Source: Octopus vulgaris (lineage: Eukaryota). Taken from it: a stretch of 64,000 bases of DNA. The DNA lies in NCBI GenBank assembly GCA_951406725.2, contig OX597815.1:46066001-46130000 (forward strand), given 5' to 3'. Shown here one piece after another: positions 2,065 to 40,429 of the stretch. Position numbers and translations under genes: made by a program. Below the pieces are notes generated by a model, which saw only the letters and a list, made by a program, of their open reading frames with translations, did not search any database and was not told where the DNA came from. The stretch's first letter is position 1. Each line of letters starts with the position of its first letter.

Positions 2065-3644
2065 TAGTTACAGATACATTCCGTTATTCCGCGGATTAAT
2101 TAAGAGTTAAAAATGATGGCATTTTCTCACAAGATTCCAAGAAAATAAACCATCAGATCAGAGAAAATGAAATAAGATACTTCTTCACAATTTTACGAGC
2201 TACACATTTCAAATAGTGTTTTTACTTTCTGTCCAACCTTCTTTAAGGCTACAGAATTTCATGTATTTCATGTAATTATTGAATCAACTATTAATTTCAT
2301 ATGCCATATTTGCATTTACAATAAATCATTTCTCTTTTAGATTGAAGCAACAGTATGAATATGTAAATATCAATCTGATGTAAGCCATCTTGCGTCTGGG
2401 AAAAGCGTCTTGGAAAAATAACTGTCTCTGGATTTCTTCAATGCGTCAACCTATTTCTAGCCGTGGAAGTATAGATTTTCAGAGTTATCCTCAGTTTAAA
2501 TCTAAACGTCACACCAGCAATAAAACTAACCGCTAATTCATAATCACCATATTTGAAATACATACGTCTCGTCTACTTCTGCTGTAGAGCCAGTTCCCGA
2601 GACGTGGGGGTGTTATACTATTGATTATGTGAAATATGACTGTGATTACAATCGTACAATCTGTGAGACACTATCTCTGTTATTCACTGAGATCAAAATA
2701 ATGTATCATGTTGCATAACACTGTGAAGAAATGGGCTGATGATTTTAGATCTGCAACTTAAATATGTCTCAAACAATATGATTTCAATACAGTTAACAGA
2801 AATATCAGTAAGAATAATAATTTTTCTCTCAAAATTAATCGTGTGCACGATTTCTGTATACTGCAGGTATTTAGTTCAGTGACTCTTCAAGTCTCCCTTT
2901 TCAGGTGGTAGGAGGACAGTTTTTTCTTCTCTCCCTGAATTACCTATGTACTTGCAACTCTTTCATTTCGCATTCATTATTCTATATGCAATACTTCGTA
3001 ATAAAATAAGTGTGAGAAGGGAGCAGGGGTGCAGATCATAAATCTGAAATGCAGAAGTTTAGTCACGATATTCGTCTGCCGAAAACACCTCCCAGCGCCT
3101 CCGTCGCCGCCGTCTCCATGTGGTAGACATTGGATTATGGTGCAGGACTGCTTGTCTCATACATTTCAAAATACTTCACCACCCTTACACGTGCGTATTT
3201 TAAAATTCCCTGGACATTAGGTTAAACTCACTGAATTAACTGTATCTGTGGCACGAGAAATCAGACTATATTACAAACATTCGGATATGTGTCTGTCCCA
3301 GATATTCACGTCAGAAATACATGCAATATACAGCAACAAACATTAACAGATAATAGACACACACCATCTTGCTCTTATTCTTATATGTAGCTATTTATGT
3401 ATCTATTTATCAGTAAATCTTTCATGCTTATCCTCCCTTCTCTCTTTTTTCTATTTTTGTCCTTTTATCTACACATATGAACACATATGTGCACACATGT
3501 ATACGTGAAAGTTAGTAGGAATACCCATGCGTGTGTACACATGTGTGTGACTATGGGTAGTTGCAATCCTGTACTGTATCGTCCTGTGTCATTCTTGATC
3601 TTTCAATTAACCCTTTGTGGTTAATAAAGAAAGCATTTCACACA

Positions 3645-7595: not shown

Positions 7596-8384
7596 TTGAG
7601 TTGGCAACTAAGTTCCCGCGGTTTTTTAAATTTTGGAATCTATGTTTTGGGGAATTCTATTTTTGAATCATTTTGGAATCTATTTTGCTTTTTTTTTTCG
7701 AGTTAATTTTAGTTATTTTTTGTTTATTTTCAGATCATTAAAATGGAATATGAAGTTAAGAACAACGAGCATTTTCGACACCTCCTTTTTGCTTTTAATC
7801 AAGGTTCTAAGGTCGCAAAAGCTACTCGCGACATTTGTGCTGTGTATGGAGAGGGTGCCATAGCTGAAAGAACCGCTCGTGGTTGGTATGCCAAGTTCAA
7901 AAATGGAAATTTTGACCGCAAAGATGCACCTCGCTCTGGCCGTCCAGCTGAGTTCGATGAAGCGCGATTAATTCAACTTTTGCACGAAAATTCTCGTCAA
8001 ACGACACACTGCTATAGAGAAGCATCTTCACTCGATGGGAAAGGTTCAGAAGTATGGAGCATTGGTTCGCATGCTTTAAGAGACAACAACAAAAATCAAC
8101 GAGCCACAATCTCCGCTGGTTTGCTTCCTCATCACCGCTCAACTCATGGACACAAGCAATGATTTCTTTACCAAATCGTTACTGGCGACGAAAAATGGTG
8201 CCTGAACATCAATATGAAGCAGCGTAAGGAATAGCTTAGCCCCGGTAAACAAGCGACACCGCGCATGAAACAAGATCTTCATCCACGTAAAACGATGTTA
8301 TGCGTATGGTGGGACTGGGAAAGGATTATCCGTTACGAATTGCTTGAACGGAACCAAACGGTCAACGCGGAACTCTATGTTCAA
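7596..8384 (+). mobile_element. mariner transposon, 5' TIR plus decayed transposase, 3'-truncated
   Basis: TA then TTGAGTTGGCAACTAAGTTCCCGCGG. ORF from 7743 MEYEVKNNEHFRHLL...DAPRSGRP, later IVTGDEKW and LCVWWDW...NQTVNAELY, with frameshifts and stops. Confidence 0.92.
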
Positions 8385-12899: not shown

Positions 12900-13510
12900 A
12901 GAGAGTAAAGAGGAAAATGAGGCTGTAGAGGTTTTGAAGGTGGGATATGAATTTAGCAGTGTTTCGAATGACATGGGCGCTTTAAAAAGCGGAAGAACGA
13001 CTCTGGAAGAGCGATGGGCAATCTAGAAGACCTGCCACATATGTCACCCTCGAAGATGTGATATTGTGCATCAAAAATTCGTCCCCCCAGAGCCTGACCG
13101 TCAATCGAGAGTTCTACCGCGACTTTTTGAAGCGCTTGAAGGAGGACCTTCTATGAAAGCGACCGGATCTGTGGAGTGTGAACAATGGGATTCTTCACGC
13201 CTACAATGTCTCCTGTTACTGAGCTGTCCTCACTCGTGCGCTTCCCGCCAAAACAGCATGGTATCGCTTCCGCACCCGCCCTATTCACCAGATTTAGCAC
13301 TTGCCAGCTTCCATCCCTTCCCCAAGATGAAAATGCAGCTCAAAGGTCACCATTTTAACACCGTTGTCGAGATCCAGAGCAAATAGCAGAAGGTCTTCGA
13401 CTCGCTTACGGAAACGACAGATTCCATAAGTGGCAGGAACGCTGGGACCGGTGTATTGCTGCGCAAGGTGACTGTTACGGAAGAGATGATATTAAAACCT
13501 AGGTAAATAA
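12900..13510 (+). mobile_element. Internally deleted, decayed mariner transposase
   Basis: FKSGRTTLE, HQKFVPP, LPHPPYSPDLA, FPKMKMQLKGHHF, KWQERWDRCIAAQGD. Confidence 0.9.
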
Positions 13511-14256
13511 TTTTTGTTGTTACAAATCATTTGTGTGAGATTTTGTTTTTATCTATCTATATATATTCCACACTACAATCTATATTGGTAAAAGACAAAG
13601 GAAATTTAAAAATATATAAAATTACTTAAAATTATATGCATATGTGCACACAATTAGATGGCCGTTGACTCTCATGAGTTCCTCCGCCCTTTAATGGATC
13701 TTGTTTTTCCTCCCGTAGTGTTGTTCAAAATCCTCCCCCTTACCAGCTTGGTGGGGGTTACCGGTTCAGTCGCCAACGATCCGACCATGTGACAGGTTGT
13801 ACTGGGTTACATACAGTAGCACTCATAACAATAATACATAATAATAATAATAATAATAATAATAATATATATATAAATGCATAAACACATATGTGGCCAT
13901 GTAAAGCTATACTCAGAGGATTTCCAATCGTGCGGGTCTCGTTTTGGTTTCAAGCGGAGTACATCAAAGAATACATTATCCATTATGGTCTCGTGCTGTT
14001 GTCAGACAGCGGTGAATCATTTGTGTGAGATTCGGTTGCTATTTTTAGCAGGAATATCTTGCAGTATTTCCCACCCTTCGTCATCGTTATTGGTAGCTAT
14101 AGTGGTGGTGGTGATGATGGAGATGGTGCTGGAGGTAATAAGAGAAGTAGGAAAGTAATTCTAATATCACACAGAGGTAATTTTAATAATAGTAACAACA
14201 ATGACGACGACGTCGATGATGATGGTGATAATAATAATAATGATAATAATAATAAT

Positions 14257-14362
14257 GCATGTGCCTGGTGCACCCTTATCAGACGGGTAGTCATGACGGG
14301 TGTATTTGGCTTCATATATTGTACTCATGTGTCACTTTGATGGAATGCACTGCTCACTCACT

Positions 14363-14363
<1 letters not shown>
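14257..14363 (+). mobile_element. 5'-truncated copy of the (AAT)n-targeted non-coding element (duplicate at 16795-16902)
   Basis: Matches the last ~105 bp of 17868-18420, with AAT repeats on both sides. Confidence 0.8.
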
Positions 14364-14399
<36 letters not shown>

Positions 14400-14606
14400 T
14401 TCTATTAAAGGCATAAGGCCTCAAATTTGGTAGGAGGGGACTAGTCGATTACATCGACCCCAGTGTTTCACTGGTACTTAATTTATCGGCCTTGTAAGAA
14501 TAAAAGGCAAAAGTCGAGCTCGATGAAATTTGCAATCAGCGTAGGTCGGGCGAAATGCCGCTAAGCATTTTGCTTGGCGTGCTAACGATTCTACCAGCCA
14601 GCTGCC

Positions 14607-14607
<1 letters not shown>
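14400..14607 (-). mobile_element. SINE family A
   Basis: GTCGATTACATCGACCCCAGTG...GAAATGCCGCTAAGCATTTTGCTTGGCGTGCTAACG. Confidence 0.8.
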
Positions 14608-14673
<66 letters not shown>

Positions 14674-14689
14674 TAAAAATAAAAATAAA

Positions 14690-14721
<32 letters not shown>

Positions 14722-14725
14722 TAAA

Positions 14726-15115
<390 letters not shown>

Positions 15116-15184
15116 AATAATATTAATAATAATAACAACAACAACAACAACAACATCATCATCATCATCAACAACAACAACAAC

Positions 15185-15228
<44 letters not shown>

Positions 15229-15239
15229 TAATAATAACA

Positions 15240-15425
15240 ATCCCTTCTACTATAGGCACAAGACCTGAAATTTGGGGGAGGGGGAAATTCAATTACCTCG
15301 ACTGATGTTTCACCAGTACTTAATTTATCGACCCCGAAAGAATGAAAGGCAAAGTCGTCCTTCCTGAAATTTGAACTCAGAACATAAGTAGGACGGCCGC
15401 AACAGGCTAACAATTCTATCTCCCC
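15240..15425 (-). mobile_element. SINE family A, decayed
   Basis: AGTACTTAATTTATCGACCCCGAAAGAATGAAAGGCAAAGTCG...GAAATTTGAACTCAGAAC. Confidence 0.75.
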
Positions 15426-15471
<46 letters not shown>

Positions 15472-15799
15472 CCCTGATGCAGTACCAGGCAGTGGCTCTC
15501 ATGGCTTCTGATCTTAACTGATTGGAAGTGTTATCATGTACATTGTTTTGTCTTGGTATAAAAGATGGGCTACAGCAAAAAATAAAATGAGCTTTCCCGC
15601 GGGACCTTAACCAGTTGAGCATGTCTCTTAGTGGCTGACGATATGTGCATCTCTGATCACGAGCAGAAGTAGTGGGGAGCATCATAGCCATGTGGTGAGA
15701 GGGATTCTTTGGGGTTTGAATAATTCACCTCTGGAAACATGGGTGGTTCTTTCAGCATCCTTAAACAACCCTTATTCAGGGACCTTTTGAGCGGGATAT

Positions 15800-16028
15800 A
15801 TTTTAACACCGTTGTCGAGATCCAGAGCAAATAGCAGAAGGTCTTCACGACTCGCTTACGGAAACGACAGATTCCATAAGTGGCAGGAACGCTGGAACCG
15901 GTGTGATTGCAAATAGCGCAAGGTGACGACGACATTATTACGGAAGAGATGATATTAAAACCTAGGTAAATAAGTTTTTTTGTTATCAAACGTAATTAGT
16001 CCTGGACCTTTTTGATACCACCTCGTAT
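15800..16028 (+). mobile_element. mariner 3' end with TIR (duplicate of 13352-13510)
   Basis: Ends TAGTCCTGGACCTTTTTGATACCACCTCG followed by TA. Confidence 0.8.
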
Positions 16029-16145
16029 ATATATATATTTCCAGTTTTACATACAGAAGTACAATCTATGCGTATTAAAAGACAAAGGAAATTTAAAAAT
16101 ATATAAAATTACTTAAAATTATATGCATATGTGCACACAATTAGA

Positions 16146-16328
16146 TGGCCGTTGACTCTCATGAGTTCCTCCGCGCTTAATGAGATCTTGTTTTCCTCCC
16201 GTAGTGTTGTTCAAAATCCTCCCCCTCACCAGCTTGGTGGGGGTTACCGGTTCAGTCGCCAACGATCCGACCATGTGACAGGTTGTACTGGGTTACATGT
16301 TCCAGTAGCACTCGAAGGCGACCAGACA
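16146..16328. repeat. Unclassified GC-richer interspersed repeat (also 13659-13822, related fragment near 3835-3875)
   Basis: GACTCTCATGAGTTCCTCCG versus CAGCTCTCATGAGAACCTCCG at 3842. Several internal hairpins. Confidence 0.5.
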
Positions 16329-16901
16329 CACATACACACGTACATCACGCACACACACACATACATTCATACATTACATATACACACGCGCATATATATA
16401 TTTGTGTGTGTATATGCATAACAGACATATGTGGCCATGTAAAGCTATACTCAGAGGATTTCCAATCGTGCGGGTCTCGTTTTGGTTTCAAGCGGAGTAC
16501 ATCAAAGAATACATTATCCATTATGGTCTCGTGCTGTTGTCAGACAGCGGTGAATCATTTGTGTGAGATTCGGTTGCTATTTTTAGCAGGAATATCTTGC
16601 AGTATTTCCCACCCTTCGTCATCGTTATTGGTAGCTATAGTGGTGGTGGTGATGATGGAGATGGTGCTGGAGGTAATAAGAGAAGTAGGAAAGTAATTCT
16701 AATATCACACAGAGGTAATTTTAATAATAGTAACAACAATGACGACGACGTCGATGATGATGGTGATAATAATAATAATGATAATAATAATAATGCATGT
16801 GCCTGGTGCACCCTTATCAGACGGGTAGTCATGACGGGTGTATTTGGCTTCATATATTTGTACTCATGTGTCACTTTGATGGAATGCACTGCTCGCTCAC
16901 T

Positions 16902-16944
<43 letters not shown>

Positions 16945-16991
16945 TTCTATTAAAGGCATAAGGCCTCAAATTTGGTAGGAGGGGACTAGTC

Positions 16992-17054
<63 letters not shown>

Positions 17055-17104
17055 TAAAAATAAAAAATAAAAATAATAATAATAATAATAATAATAAAAA
17101 TAAA

Positions 17105-17221
<117 letters not shown>

Positions 17222-17786
17222 CCTCTCAAGTACGAAATAGCCCGACTATGGAAAATGAAGGGGAATTATCGTTGGGTCCTCGGGAACAATATCAGAAGGC
17301 ATCAAGATGAATATAAAGGAAATTGGAATAAAGTACCCAGTAGAACTGTTACAAAAAGTTTGCTTCCTTGACACAACCAGAATAATCAGGAAAGTATTAG
17401 ATAGCTGAAAAGAACGAATTATATGGTACCGTAGGCTGCAGGTGGTAATCCCGTTACGCATGCAAGACTTCAGGTGTTCCAAGAAAGCCTGTGATAAAGA
17501 GAAATAATATTAATAATAATAACAACAACAACAACAACAACATCATCATCATCATCAACAACAACAACAACAACAATAATAATAATAATAATAATAATAA
17601 AATAATATAATAAGATAATAATAACAATCCCTTCACACACAAGACATGGTTGTGCGTGTGTGTGTGTACTCAATTTCCTAGTGCACCAGTATTAATTTAT
17701 GGAAAGAATAAAGGCAAATTCCTTCCGAAATTTGAACTCAGAACATAAGTAGGACGGCCGCAACAGGCTAACAATTCTATCTCCCC

Positions 17787-17849
<63 letters not shown>

Positions 17850-17867
17850 CATAATAATAATAATAAT

Positions 17868-18420
17868 GCCCTGATGCAGTACCAGGCAGTGGCTCTCATG
17901 GCTTCTGATCTTAACTGATTGGAAGTTTTATCATGTACATTGTTTTGTCTTGGTATAAAAGATGGGCTACAGCAAATATTCTGCTCAATCCCACAGATTT
18001 GCTTGTCAGTTGTTTGACCTTAACCAGTTGAGCATGTCTCTTAGTGGCTGACGATATGTGCATCTCTGATCACGAGCAGAAGTAGTGGGGAGCATCATAG
18101 CCATGTGGTGAGAGGGATTCTTTGGGGTTTGAATAATTCACCTCTGGAAACATGGGTGGTTCTTTCAACATCCTTAAACAACCCTTATTCAGGGACCTTT
18201 TGAGCGGGATAGGCTACTCAACCTGAAGAAAATTCTAACTGGGCCCCACCTGCAGGGTCATGTGCTGTTTATCTTAATATGAGATCACCATGTCGCGCAC
18301 ATATGGTTGTGATGCATGTGTCTGGTGTACCCTTATCGGACGGGTAGTCATGATGGGTATATTGGGGTTCGTATATTTTACCCCAGTGTCACTTTGATGG
18401 CATGCACTGCTCTCTCACTC
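17868..18420 (+). mobile_element. ~550-bp non-coding (AAT)n-targeted element, full-length copy (partial copy 15471-15798)
   Basis: GCCCTGATGCAGTACCAGG...CTCTCTCACTC with (AAT)n on both sides. A second full copy is at 30558-31101 on the minus strand. Confidence 0.88.
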
Positions 18421-23380: not shown

Positions 23381-24084
23381 TACAAAGTATTTAGTAATAA
23401 ACGAAGTACTTATATATAAGAAAATACACTGAGGCCTAATATATTCTCTTCTTGATAATGAGACTGTGAAAGTCTAGAAACCTCGAATATGGATTTAGGA
23501 ACTTTACTCTTCCAAATCAAGTCTAAAAATGCTACGAAAATATGAAAAAAAATGAAATAAAACAATAAATACATGTGTATATGTTCCTATGTGTGTCTTG
23601 AGAGAGAAAGAGAGAGAAAAAAGAAAAATTAAAAAAGAGAGAAAAAAGAAAAAAGAAAAAGAGAGAGAAGAAAGAAAAAAGAAAAAAGAAAGAGAAAGGT
23701 TCATCATAAGAGAATAGGCAGTGCTTATGCTCTTCTTTTATATAAGTTCTGGAAATGACAGGGAGAAAAGGAGGAGGACGTTTGATATTCCATGGCAGGA
23801 ACATTCGGATCCGAATGAAGAAGCCATTCTTCGCTAAAGACACCCAGTATCCGGGTGAAGACAGCAAGACGTCTTGTTAATATTTAACCACAGGACAAAT
23901 CTTGTTAATGTTCAACCACAGGACAAGCATACTTCAGCAATAAGATTTATGAACAAAATCCTTCCTGCCATAGCAATCCCACCTTGATAGTGATATTTAG
24001 AATTACAGTTTCCAGTGTCGCCTTCTCTTAACTTAGTAACTGTTTATTTGGGAGAGATCATACTTGTGTGTGAGTGCGTGTATA

Positions 24085-28466: not shown

Positions 28467-28987
28467 AGGGCAGTCTTCCGTGTACAAAGTTGTATTAGCA
28501 ACTTGGTACACAGAAAGGATTGTATTATTAGCACGGTGGGACTGAACTTGAAACTACGTAATTGTAAGGTGAACTTCTTAACCATAGCCAATCAATATCG
28601 AAAGCTAAAGGAAGTTAGAATTTGATACGATGCTTTGGAGGGTTGTCTAAACTATTAATCTGTATTGGTTTATGTAGAAGCCTTCCTTTTATTAATGCTG
28701 AGTTTATATCAACACTGGGGAGAGCATTTAAGCATGTAGATTGGAAACCACAAGATATATCACAGATACAACAATAAACAGCAACTATGTTTCCAGTACT
28801 ATTCAAGTATTCCATCTGATGGTCAAACGTTTTGATGAGTGTTAATTAAAATAATTTATGTGAACTCTCAATGAATAAAGAAAAGATTCTTCTTCTTCTT
28901 CTTCTTCTTCTTCTTCTTCTTCTTCTTCTTCTTCTTCTTCTTCTTCTTCTTCTTCTTCTTCTTCTTCTTCTTCTTCTTCTTCTTCTT

Positions 28988-30462
28988 GCCTTTGCACAGC
29001 TTCTAACGCTGGAGATGTACTACAGTGTCAGCTGTTCACTACCAGTGAACTAAGGTAACACCTTATTTTTCGAGCACCTTCCGGAGTATTCGAGCGGCTC
29101 CAAGCAGTGCTATTTTCTGCAAGTGCTCCATCGTTATTGCAACCCCTATTTGTTCCACGTACTTCTCCAGATGTTTTCTCACTGTTCCCAGTGGTCCGAC
29201 AATTATTGGTATTACTGTTACCTTTTTCATCGACCACAACTGCTTTACTTTCCAAGCTAACTTTTCAAGCAACTTTTCTTTCTTCCTTATCGCATACCTT
29301 GTTGTCAGCTGGACGGGCTATATCAATGATCCAGCATAGTTTGTTTTCTTTCTCCGTTAAGACTATGTCCGGCTTCCTATTCTCTATCCCATGGTCGCAC
29401 TGAATCATAAAATCCCATAGGATCTTTGCATTTCTATTTTCGACGATGACTTCAGGTTTGTGGTCGTACCAATTTTTTTCATTATCAAGTCCCTTGTTGC
29501 AAAGTGTCCATATTGTCGTGGCGTCTCTTATATTCCTTCTGGGCGTGTGACGTACAATGGCTGGTAGTATGCCATACGGTTTCACCGTTTTGTCCACAGA
29601 TTCTGCAATTATCACTTTCTGATGTGTTGTCTATTCTGTAGTTTATGTAGTTTGTTCTTAGCGCTTGCTCTTGGGCAGCATAGATTAGAGCCTCCGTTTC
29701 AGGTTTTAAATCACTTTTAGTCATCCACAACCATCTTTTTTCTCTGTCTGTCTTATCTTCAATATCCCTATGAAATTGACCATGCATTCTTTTCTTTACC
29801 CACCTATTTTTAGTTTCATTCGTTCTCAATTTCTTGTATAGTGCTTTATTTTTATAATCTTTCATCCTACACACACCTGATCTTCTAATAATAGCGGTTC
29901 TGTGGCATTTTTTACATACCATACTATATTGCTTTCTTCTGCTCTAATGCTGGGTTCGCATCCAATAAGTTCTCTTCCCCCTCTTTTTCTTGGTATATAT
30001 AGTCTGCCTGTGTCACTTTTTGAGTGGAGTGACCTATATCTAGTTAGCAACTTCTTTGTCTTTCTGTTTAAGCTGTTTTGTTCTTCTACTGTACATGCGA
30101 TTACTCCTGCTCCATATCTAAGGAGTGAAACCGCCCAGGTATTGATAGCTTCGATCTCATTCCATCCGTTTAATTTCGACTTAAGGATCATTCTTAGTCT
30201 GCGCAAGTACTCCACCTTAAATTTTTCTGTCATCTCTTTCTCCATCAATTTATCAATTTCCAAAATCCCCAAGTACTTATAGCCCGTCTCTTCTATCTGC
30301 TTCTTAGCCTTCCCCGACGGTATCGTTAACCCGTCCATACATTTGATTTTGCCTCTCTTCAAGACTAACACCCCACACTTCTCAGTCCGAACTCCATTCT
30401 GATATCAGTACTGAAGGTATACACCGTATCAACGAGGGAACTGACTTGGGCTTCATCATAAA
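28988..30462 (-). mobile_element. 5'-truncated R4/Dong-clade non-LTR retrotransposon, family 1 (RT end, zinc knuckle, RLE), frameshifted
   Basis: DIRMEFG, YKYLG, AINTWAVSLLRYG, LYIPRKRGGR, MHGQF, AAQEQALRT, CRICG..ETVWH, RRHDN, KILWDF, RKPDIVL..IIDIA, IIVGPLG, ARILRKVL*. Microsatellite on both sides. Confidence 0.93.
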
Positions 30463-30557: not shown

Positions 30558-31101
30558 GAGTGAGAGATCAGTGCATGCCAACAAAGTGACACTGAGGTAA
30601 AATATACAAAGCCCAGTATACCCATCATGACTACCCGTCCGATAAGGGGCACCAGGCACATGCATCACAACAATATATATGCGCGACAAGGCGATCTGAT
30701 ATCGAGATAAACAGCGTTTGACCTTGCAGGTGGGGCCCAGTTAGAATTTTCCTTAGGTCAAGTAGCCCAATGCTCAAAAAGTACCTAAATAAGGGTTGTT
30801 TAAGGATGTTGAACGAAATAGCCATGTTTCCAGAGGTGAAGTATTCAAACCCCAAAGAATCCCTCTCAACACATGGCTATGATACTCCCCCACTACTTCT
30901 GTTCGTGATCAGAGATGCACTAAGGTCATCGTCAGCTGCCAAGGGACATGCTTAAATGGTTAAGGTCAAAGAACTGACGAGCAAATCTGTGGTATCTGCT
31001 GTAGCCCATCTTTTATACCAAGAAAAATATATACTCGATAACACTTCCAATCAGTTAAGATTAGAAGCCATGAGAGCCACTGCCTGGTACTGAATCAGGG
31101 T
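30558..31101 (-). mobile_element. ~550-bp non-coding (AAT)n-targeted element, second full copy
   Basis: Reverse complement of 17868-18420, flanked by ATT/ATC repeats. Confidence 0.88.
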
Positions 31102-31361: not shown

Positions 31362-31443
<82 letters not shown>

Positions 31444-31445
<2 letters not shown>

Positions 31446-31942
31446 GTTTGACTTTTGCTTTATATTTGTACAAGTTGGCTCCAAGTCTCACCCGGAGACC
31501 TCAAGAGACAACAGGTTGGAAGTTCACGTTGTTGTTATGCCTAGTGTGCCATATATTTGGTTGTTTTTTGTGTTGTACTGGTGGATGTCTAAAAAAAAAT
31601 GTTTGTTTTAAACCTTGATATTACATAGAAAGTATTTTGCGTAGGATATGAGCAGCTCCCATGAGCACTATCTTTTGAATTTCTGCCATATTTGGGTTTC
31701 CTGGTATCTGAGTTAGGTAGCTATCAGCCCCTTTTGTTATCATTCTCAGGGCACCTATGACAACAGGTATTGTTTTAGTCTTCAGGTTCCACATTTTGCT
31801 GATTTCTATTTCAAGATCTTTATATTTGCTCAGTTTTTGGTAGGTCTTGACAGATACGTTTATATCGATTGGGACAGTCATATCAATGAGGAGGCATGTT
31901 CTTTGTTTGAAGTCTTTCAATATGATGTCTGGCATATTTGCA
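31444..31942 (-). mobile_element. R4/Dong LINE 3' fragment, family 2 (RLE domain plus 3' UTR)
   Basis: PDIILKD..CLLIDMTVP..KLSKYKDL..IPVVIGAL..AHILRKILSM*. Flanked by (ATT)n and (ATC)n. Confidence 0.92.
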
Positions 31943-31943
31943 T

Positions 31944-31987
<44 letters not shown>

Positions 31988-34330: not shown

Positions 34331-34705
34331 ATGTTTGACTTTTGCTTTATGTCTGTACAAGTTGGCTCCAAGTCTCACCCAGAGACCTCAAGAGACAACA
34401 GGTTGGAAGTTCTGTGCCATATATTTGGGGTTTTTTTTTTTGGTGTTGTACTAGTGAATGTCTAATACATAAAAATAAAATTGGAAAAAAAAAAAAAAAT
34501 TATATAAAAAAAAGTTTGTTTTAAACCTTGGGATTACATAGAGAGTATTTTGCGTAGGATATGAGCAGTTCCCATGAGCACTATCTTTTGAATTTCTGCC
34601 ATTTTGGGGTTTCCTGGTATCTTAGTTAGGTAGCAATCAGTCCCTTTCGCTATCATTCCCAGGGCACCTATGACAACAGGTATTGTTTTAGTCTTCAGCT
34701 TCCAC
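34331..34705 (-). mobile_element. R4/Dong LINE 3' fragment, family 2, shorter copy
   Basis: Highly similar to 31444-31790, flanked by (ATT)n. Confidence 0.9.
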
Positions 34706-39452: not shown

Positions 39453-39684
39453 AGGCGGCGAGCTGGCAGAAACGGTAGCACGCCGGGCGAAATGCGTAGC
39501 CGTATTTCGTCTGCCGTTACGTTCTGAGTTCAAACCCCGCCGAGGTCGAATTTGCCTTTCATCCTTTCGGGGTCGATAAATTAAGTACCAGTTACGCACT
39601 GGGGATCGATGGAATCGACTTAATCGCTTTGTCTGTCCTTGTTTGTCCCCTCTGTGTTTAGCCCCTTGTGGGTAGTAAAGAAAT
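39453..39684 (+). mobile_element. SINE family A, full length
   Basis: GGCGGCGAGCTGGCAGAA...GAGTTCAAACCCC...GCCCCTTGTGGGTAGTAAAGAAATA. Confidence 0.92.
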
Positions 39685-40429
39685 ATATATATAAATAAAT
39701 ATATACGCATTTGTGCATATAATACACATAAATATATATCATAGACTTATGCATACATATATACATCACAATCCGTATTGCATATGCACATATATATTGT
39801 ATTTACATAAAAATATGCAACCTGTCCAAGCAGCGCTAATGACCCACGAACGATGGAATATCGAAGATACTGCTGATAACTTTACAACACTCTACCGACA
39901 TATACATCTCGAGCTTTATGTAGGTAATCGCCATGGTCATTGATAATATAGTTTATATAATAAGTTTACATATATAATAAGAGGTAGATAGATTGACAGA
40001 CACACAAAATGAATGTATTAACACATACATAACTACACACACTGAATCTCGCATACAACCCAGACTTAGAAAACGAGTATGAACGAGTGCGTACCTCTCG
40101 AGTGCACAGATGTATTTTGGCACTGGATAATTCAGTGAACCAGCTAATGGCATCTTTGACCGACCTCACTTCGACTATCCAGTGAAGCATGTGCGTGTGT
40201 GTGTCTTTATGTATTTATGATATGCTTAAATGTATATATATATATGTATATATATATATACTTATATATGCTTATGAGTATATGTTTAAATATATTTGTA
40301 TATGCATATGGGTATGATGATGCAAACAGGAAAAAAAAGAAATCAGAATATGAATGTATGGATATTTTCATTAATATTTAGCAGAAACAACAGAGTGACT
40401 GAAGGGTCGAGAGTTTCATGCGTTGCCAC

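Follow-up and report, generated by a model that had tools for sequence, protein, structure and literature searches.

What carries a non-coding repeat of ∼555 nt into (AAT)n tracts, beside fragments of Dong-type long interspersed nuclear elements (LINEs)? The question is raised by a 64-kb stretch of the Octopus vulgaris genome (contig OX597815.1, positions 46,066,001–46,130,000; the window), which holds several copies of such a repeat, referred to here as the element. Discrete ends, the lack of an open reading frame (ORF), an AAT target in the polarity and 3′ register of Dong, a lean towards 5′ truncation, and 5′ duplications like those of the Dong family F4 are all observed directly. The element is likely a retroposon that is non-autonomous and depends on Dong for its mobilisation in trans, and we infer that a predicted hairpin near its 3′ end may act as a Dong recognition signal.

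A non-coding family in (AAT)n tracts

The element forms a discrete, high-copy, interspersed family with sharp ends. A genome search returned 5,158 first-look candidates, the best 40 of which are near full length at 97–100%. In an unbiased sample of 60 fixed-position 10-kb stretches (600 kb), 13 matches were found in 6 stretches, amounting to 0.69% of bases, and extrapolation from this sample gives roughly 50–60 thousand fragments genome-wide. An account of the element would thus explain a repeat that makes up about 0.7% of a 2.8-Gb genome. The initial annotation had described it as free of any credible ORF and of a tRNA head, and both statements hold: no ORF of at least 120 aa overlaps 17868–18420, and a tRNA search of the element at 17868 was negative.

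The flanks were analyzed in 138 distinct copies, from loci many of which were fetched beside Dong or element matches. AAT adjoins 95 of 103 intact 3′ ends, compared with 91 of 22,680 background positions (0.4%), as well as 64 of 81 intact 5′ ends; the copies thus lie mostly in AAT tracts, as had been predicted. The exact 3′ ends run directly into AATAAT in 81 of 95 cases, a register identical to that of the Dong families, and the tracts around the element have Dong polarity. Clear AAT was read by eye on the 3′ side of 10 of the 13 matches in the unbiased sample and on the 5′ side of 9. With (AAT)n on both flanks, a target-site duplication is indistinguishable. The ends are not complementary when read by eye, and terminal inverted repeats, a trait of miniature inverted-repeat transposable elements, are therefore not apparent.

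Truncation leans towards the 5′ side. The 12 distinct copies of the fixed-position sample comprise 3 full, 7 5′-truncated (three of them one tandem triple), no 3′-truncated and 2 internal copies. The 85 bystander copies divide into 33 full ones, 29 without the 5′ end, 16 for which BLAST shows no 3′ end, and 7 internal ones; of the 16, 6 are accounted for by 5′ duplications, internal deletions or an interruption of the copy, so that 10 real cases are left (7:0 in the sample and 29 vs 10 among bystanders). The shortest inserts consist of the last 24–48 nt. At one locus (L116:4180-4691), three identical 48-nt 3′ fragments stand in tandem, with AAT tracts around each, beside two longer copies.

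The 5′ end falls at the same base in most copies. Tandem duplications of the first 14–136 nt, present at four loci (L021, L159, L162 and L222), restart at (A)AAT-GCCC and so mark the putative RNA start; the 5′ end of the first window copy, initially placed at 17868, is accordingly moved ∼3–4 nt upstream. Most of 19 F4 5′ ends likewise carry tandem repeats of their first 20–30 nt.

The predicted 3′ hairpin of the element and of Dong-type LINEs

The LINE fragments of the window encode the end of a reverse transcriptase (RT), a CCHC knuckle and a PD..D motif (the latter two read by eye), with no apurinic endonuclease. Their relatives carry RVT_1, and the nearest solved proteins are those of R2. 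The families are inserted in TAA repeats, as expected for Dong, which targets such repeats in Bombyx, Anopheles and Biomphalaria (PMC3812793). The name Dong is used here on the grounds of domain layout and TAA target, rather than of an RT tree. A set of 131 LINE C-termini yielded ten families of at least two copies, with 13 singletons set aside. The youngest is F4, with 99–100% identity over 40 scored matches and many full-length 5′ ends (L245:1176-1500, L240-L258).

The hairpin letters quoted in the initial annotation are correct, and its proposal that a fold is common to the element and Dong while the stem letters differ was supported. In the element consensus the hairpin is the predicted minimum-energy fold, with pair probabilities of at least 0.95, and the same applies to the truncated copy at 14257 (at least 0.86). 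A single layout describes the consensus tails of all ten Dong families and the element: a closing stem, three unpaired bases, a stem of 6–7 bp, a loop of 4–6 nt, the second strand of the inner stem, one unpaired base, and the return of the closing stem. The loop reads NGGNN in seven Dong families and the element, and the hairpin ends 32–77 nt before the 3′ end in all eleven. Core cells are paired in 92 of 99 instances over this set, where a single position can show as many as four types of pair, compared with 27–36 of 100 when the alignment is slid. The F3 hairpin has a bulged A at the same position as the element and an RGGTA loop.

When five Dong families were aligned gap-free, a covariation score of 0.65 was obtained, which none of 500 shuffles reached. 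This covariation across families could serve as a natural guide for mutant design. Among 101 copies of the element, four shared outer-stem variants keep pairing and one breaks it. The expected covariation was thus found between Dong families, whereas double compensatory changes did not appear inside the element family.

A covariance model was trained on those five Dong families alone, with the element left out. In the window, it ranked F1 first, followed by a pair of held-out tails from F2 (18 and 16 bits) and, in fourth and fifth place, two truncated copies of the element (12.6 bits, E 0.18). Two chance matches came next, the sixth match (23824–23864) having no AAT after it and looking like chance, and then the hairpin at 18322–18365 (9.2 bits, E 2.6); neither F3 copy was reported. 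In a near-consensus copy of the element, the hairpin in register was the best match of the model (11.9 bits, E 0.003 in 566 nt), and four copies at ten other loci scored 12–17 bits. The Dong-only model thus recovered the element weakly and missed several copies. A descriptor that included the bulge and loop letters gave one match in the element, at the right place, and was matched by 21 of 1000 tail shuffles and 27 of 300 whole-element shuffles. Taken together, the evidence for a hairpin conserved across Dong families is good at the level of predicted folds, and membership of the element in this fold is moderately supported.

Probable mobilisation and possible origins of the element

We consider it quite probable that Dong proteins, of the R4 type with a restriction-like endonuclease, act in trans on the RNA of the element and reverse transcribe it at nicks in (AAT)n. 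An RNA of ∼555 nt starting with (A)AAU-GCCC would be transcribed, probably not by RNA polymerase III (Pol III), since the element contains no consensus match to the generally known A and B box patterns and has three internal TTTT runs. A Dong protein would then bind the predicted hairpin, recognised by its shape, nick an (AAT)n tract, and prime reverse transcription at the 3′ end of the element. Early stops would give rise to 5′-truncated copies, while re-priming at the 5′ end would produce the tandem 5′ duplications. The initial reading as a site-specific non-autonomous retroposon is supported by the AAT targeting, the truncation lean and the absence of a single LINE to which the element could belong as a 3′ untranslated region (UTR).

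The age of the element is compatible with such a partnership. Tails differ from the consensus by a median of 6.7% (10 of 44 by at most 2.1%, 13 of 44 by at least 10%), spanning the ages of all Dong families and overlapping those of the young F4 and F2. Because copies of the element span 0–25% divergence, whereas each Dong family taken singly peaks within a narrower range, the element has likely used more than one of these families over time. The element contributes 8 3′ ends in the sample, versus at most 3 for any single Dong family.

Tentatively, these strands may be joined in a wider picture, which we hold to be possible although not the favoured outcome. Dong would read a shape, a hairpin with a 3×1 internal loop that at least ten families have kept although their 3′ UTRs are unrelated. 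An RNA with structure of its own, derived neither from a LINE nor from Pol III transcripts, would have gained a mimic of it, and would have hitch-hiked, nearly unchanged, on successive families for tens of millions of years. If so, the 44-nt hairpin would be a portable tag directing any RNA to (AAT)n microsatellites.

Several observations weigh against mobilisation by Dong through this hairpin. AAT is present on the 5′ side of only 16 of 36 5′-truncated copies, the choice of loci, mostly beside Dong or element matches, favours AAT clusters, and the 3′ end is really missing from ten bystander copies. Both full copies in the window have TCGGAC in place of TCAGAC, which lowers the pair probability of the hairpin to 0.08 or less. 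The hairpin registers were set by eye after the element had been seen, and the descriptor with bulge and loop letters was also written afterwards; a descriptor of shape alone is uninformative, as 894 of 1000 shuffles satisfy it. Scores of the Dong-only model are low for the element (9–17 bits). The model did not report the 30558 copy, nor other copies of the element and the F4, F6 and F8 hairpins at the ten other loci, and in the 600-kb sample, searched with a filter, no copy of the element came up. The outer-stem variant that breaks pairing is common to 9 copies, and no double compensatory change was found among the 101. The hairpin least like that of the others, with a 6-nt loop, belongs to F4, the youngest family. 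Finally, a profile search of 1.35 Mb revealed no primary-sequence match between the tail of the element and any Dong tail, unlike known partners among LINEs and short interspersed nuclear elements (SINEs), which share real sequence.

With the same mechanism, the element could be an internally deleted derivative (SIDE type) of an unsampled Dong family, from which it inherited its ends and hairpin. This origin seems unlikely to us, even as the strongest of the alternatives. It has a precedent in the R2 SIDEs (PMC3414825), the 5′ ends of F5–F9 were not recovered, and a published octopus annotation (PMC13282606) has 51 Dong-R4 consensus sequences compared with the ten families sampled here; the bulged A and loop of F3 also fit. 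However, no similarity was found between the element and the 5′ regions and bodies of F1, F1b, F2, F3 and F4, the ten 3′ UTR families, or anything else in the 1.35 Mb. Frames that resembled RT and knuckle motifs by eye were rejected as an ORF remnant, since 224 of 300 shuffles did as well against a Dong profile and 214 of 250 did as well in a colinear-chain test.

The ∼450-nt 5′ body, for which the initial annotation named no origin, has no match to tRNA, 5S, U2, Rfam, the Dong ORF or five Dong 5′ regions. The Rfam scan gave no relevant match at E≤10, its only match being the AAT flank. A 5S head was rejected because 72 of 500 shuffles matched the genome's own 5S gene as well, and a suspected likeness to U2 fell short of significance in comparison with the U2 gene of this genome, since at best 21 of 300 shuffles did as well; U1 was covered by the Rfam scan. 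No ribozyme like that of hepatitis delta virus (HDV) was found at the 5′ end by Rfam or by our own descriptor, which had no positive control. Candidates for a hammerhead ribozyme, a telomerase template and an Sm site gave no credible match.

The whole RNA is predicted to fold better than 100 of 100 shuffles (z −3.6), into three predicted domains, and a consensus built from 29 old copies (<93% identity) departs from that of the young ones at just 5 of 554 positions, which hints at constraint on the element beyond its tail. Both features speak for a reading in which the copies are retroposed products of a constrained, host-maintained gene for a structured RNA, whose Dong-like 3′ hairpin was carried by chance or evolved. 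We think this improbable: the element has no Rfam match, two metagenome pattern scans were empty (0 and 0), no unique source locus was seen, and several subfamily variants segregate together, a pattern known from ordinary lineages of retroposons.

Mobilisation by another LINE that adds AAT tails, such as RTE or CR1/L2, with the likeness of the hairpins reflecting a generic stem-loop of LINE tails, has still poorer prospects. A tail would not explain the AAT on the 5′ side, and the polarity and 3′ register match Dong and oppose those of a tRNA-type SINE in the same genome. No matching tail occurs in the 1.35 Mb, where RTE and CR1 tails were compared as far as they are present. The stem-loop of L2 tails has a five-base loop. 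It also has a stem with an internal loop (PMC1636434), and this likeness, together with the commonness of the bare hairpin shape among shuffles, is what speaks for such a partner.

An origin as the long 3′ UTR of some autonomous LINE, with the copies as its 5′-truncated fragments, is scarcely credible and largely refuted, since the upstream neighbours of 84 5′-intact copies vary (F4 at 14, the element at 11, F2 at 5, five other families at 10, unclassified at 44) while the 5′ end mostly does not, and F4, the commonest named neighbour, has its own 3′ end and hairpin and owes many of these loci to having been the reason for fetching them.

Related systems and features of the window

EhLINE1 of Entamoeba belongs to R4, and UnaSINE1 of eel is a tRNA-headed SINE. 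Passengers of LINEs have precedents in EhSINE1/EhLINE1 (PMC2996970), R4-N1_ED (PMC3747384) and the R2 SIDEs (PMC3414825). The closest known systems are EhSINE1 and the R2 SIDEs, but the element shares with its presumed partner a predicted fold and not a sequence. EhSINE1/EhLINE1 and R4-N1_ED/R4-1_ED of Entamoeba resemble it in combining a non-coding repeat of 500–600 bp, with no identified small-RNA precursor, with an R4-type LINE (PMC2996970, PMC3747384). EhSINE1 differs in having ∼70 bp of sequence in common with its LINE and a T-rich insertion preference only, whereas the element has only a predicted fold in common, is confined to (AAT)n, and lives in an animal host. The R2 SIDEs and R2/R1 hybrid SIDEs of Drosophila are also site-specific non-autonomous passengers of a LINE with a restriction-like endonuclease, whose 3′ end is needed for priming and in which template jumps occur at the 5′ end (PMC3414825). 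They are rare and made of the LINE's own 5′ ribozyme and 3′ UTR, unlike the element, which revealed neither a Dong-derived 5′ part nor an HDV-like ribozyme and has tens of thousands of copies. Its 3′ part has no sequence identity to the ten Dong 3′ UTR families, and only the fold fits. The element thus behaves like a LINE-dependent SINE that lacks the tRNA, 7SL or 5S head and the Pol III boxes of strict SINEs and, so far, the LINE-derived sequence of SIDEs.

Other systems share single traits. In UnaL2/UnaSINE1, retrotransposition requires a stem close to the 3′ end whose internal loop is flexible (PMC1636434); they differ in belonging to the L2 clade, in a tail common by sequence, and in showing no microsatellite targeting. 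SINEU of crocodilians and Sadhu of Arabidopsis are retroposons outside the Pol III definition of SINEs; SINEU-3 takes its target preference from its LINE, and no promoter can be recognised in Sadhu (PMC4494074). The heads of SINEU derive from U1/U2 and its partners are Tx1 elements, while U2 is unmatched in the element. Dong itself is autonomous, and in Bombyx it carries a 5′ HDV-like ribozyme (PMC3774820). Dong-R4 LINEs are abundant and recently active in octopus (PMC13282606, PMC10294476), for which 1,279 unclassified SINE families have been annotated (PMC13282606). The literature searched, which included PMC9115989 and PMC5786205 (where the terms sought do not occur), revealed no account of this family, any Dong passenger or a 3′ hairpin common to Dong families; subscription journals, Repbase, Dfam and deposited repeat libraries lay outside the search and may hold one. 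The family may already exist as an unclassified consensus in Repbase, Dfam or the octopus repeat library. For R4/Dong, a clade on whose recognition of 3′ RNA the same literature yielded nothing, the hairpin would be a candidate cis-signal, and a passenger with a common fold but not a common sequence would escape the usual matching of SINE tails to LINEs.

Table 1. Copies of the element, Dong-type fragments and related features in the window.
Feature	Position	Strand	Remarks
Full-length element, ∼555 nt	17865–18420	+	Begins (A)AAT-GCCC, ends CTCACTC; (AAT)n tracts on both sides
Predicted 3′ hairpin of the element	18322–18365	+	CCC/GGG at the end of the outer stem; internal loop TTA × T; inner stem of 6 bp, one A bulged; loop GGGTA; A>G in this copy disfavours the fold
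Second full-length copy, older	30558–31101	−	87% to consensus; flanked by same-polarity Dong F2 and F1 fragments
5′-truncated copy, last ∼110 nt	14255–14363	+	Within AAT tract
Duplicate of the 14255 copy	16793–16902	+	Via segmental duplication
5′ 344 nt of the element	15471–15798	+	Duplicate of the 17868 insertion, cut at duplication breakpoint
Tandem segmental duplication	13352–18211		13352–15798 / 15800–18211; doubles two insertions
5′-truncated Dong-type LINE F1	28987–30461	−	RT end, CCHC knuckle, restriction-like endonuclease-type PD..D; hairpin 29022–29064; then (AAG)n
5′-truncated Dong-type LINE F2	31443–31945	−	Hairpin 31472–31514
Hairpin of second F2 copy	34359–34401	−	
Dong-type F3 3′ fragment	17221–17510	+	Upstream of the element, same polarity; duplicate 14833–15120; hairpin starts 17428 and 15041

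The four pieces first listed, 17868–18420 (+), 30558–31101 (−), 14255–14363 (+) and 16793–16902 (+), were confirmed, and a fifth that had been overlooked, 15471–15798 (+), was found by self-comparison of the window (Table 1). This piece and the 14257/16795 pair stem from the tandem duplication, so that the window contains three independent insertions. The duplication, of ∼2.4 kb, is imperfect (88–90% by BLAST, with different microsatellite lengths) and may be real or an assembly artefact. The F1 copy ending near 28987 runs into (AAG)n and not (AAT)n.

The Dong families show further variation at their 5′ ends. Most F4 5′ junctions carry purine-rich or (AAG)n additions. F3 and F1b share a 5′ leader, 75–78% identical over 500–600 nt, and F2 and F1 share a leader module by eye (loci L266:1688-2600; L224; L223; L216:2270-2500; L076), which suggests exchange of 5′ UTRs between families. 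At one locus (L269, minus strand, near 3497), a 5′-truncated Dong-type copy, with a 5′ region resembling that of another locus, L286, is joined to the element's first 19 nt. This junction is possibly a template jump between element and Dong RNAs, although it is the one example and a deletion might account for it.

An abundant tRNA-type SINE (window 39454–39685 and copies) is associated with ATT in 19 and AAT in none of 112 matches, a polarity opposite to that of Dong, which suggests that it has another partner, by which the same AAT/ATT tracts are used or made. Elsewhere in the window, an open frame at 7713–8162 (+), inside an inverted-repeat region, presumably resembles the N-terminus of a mariner-type transposase.
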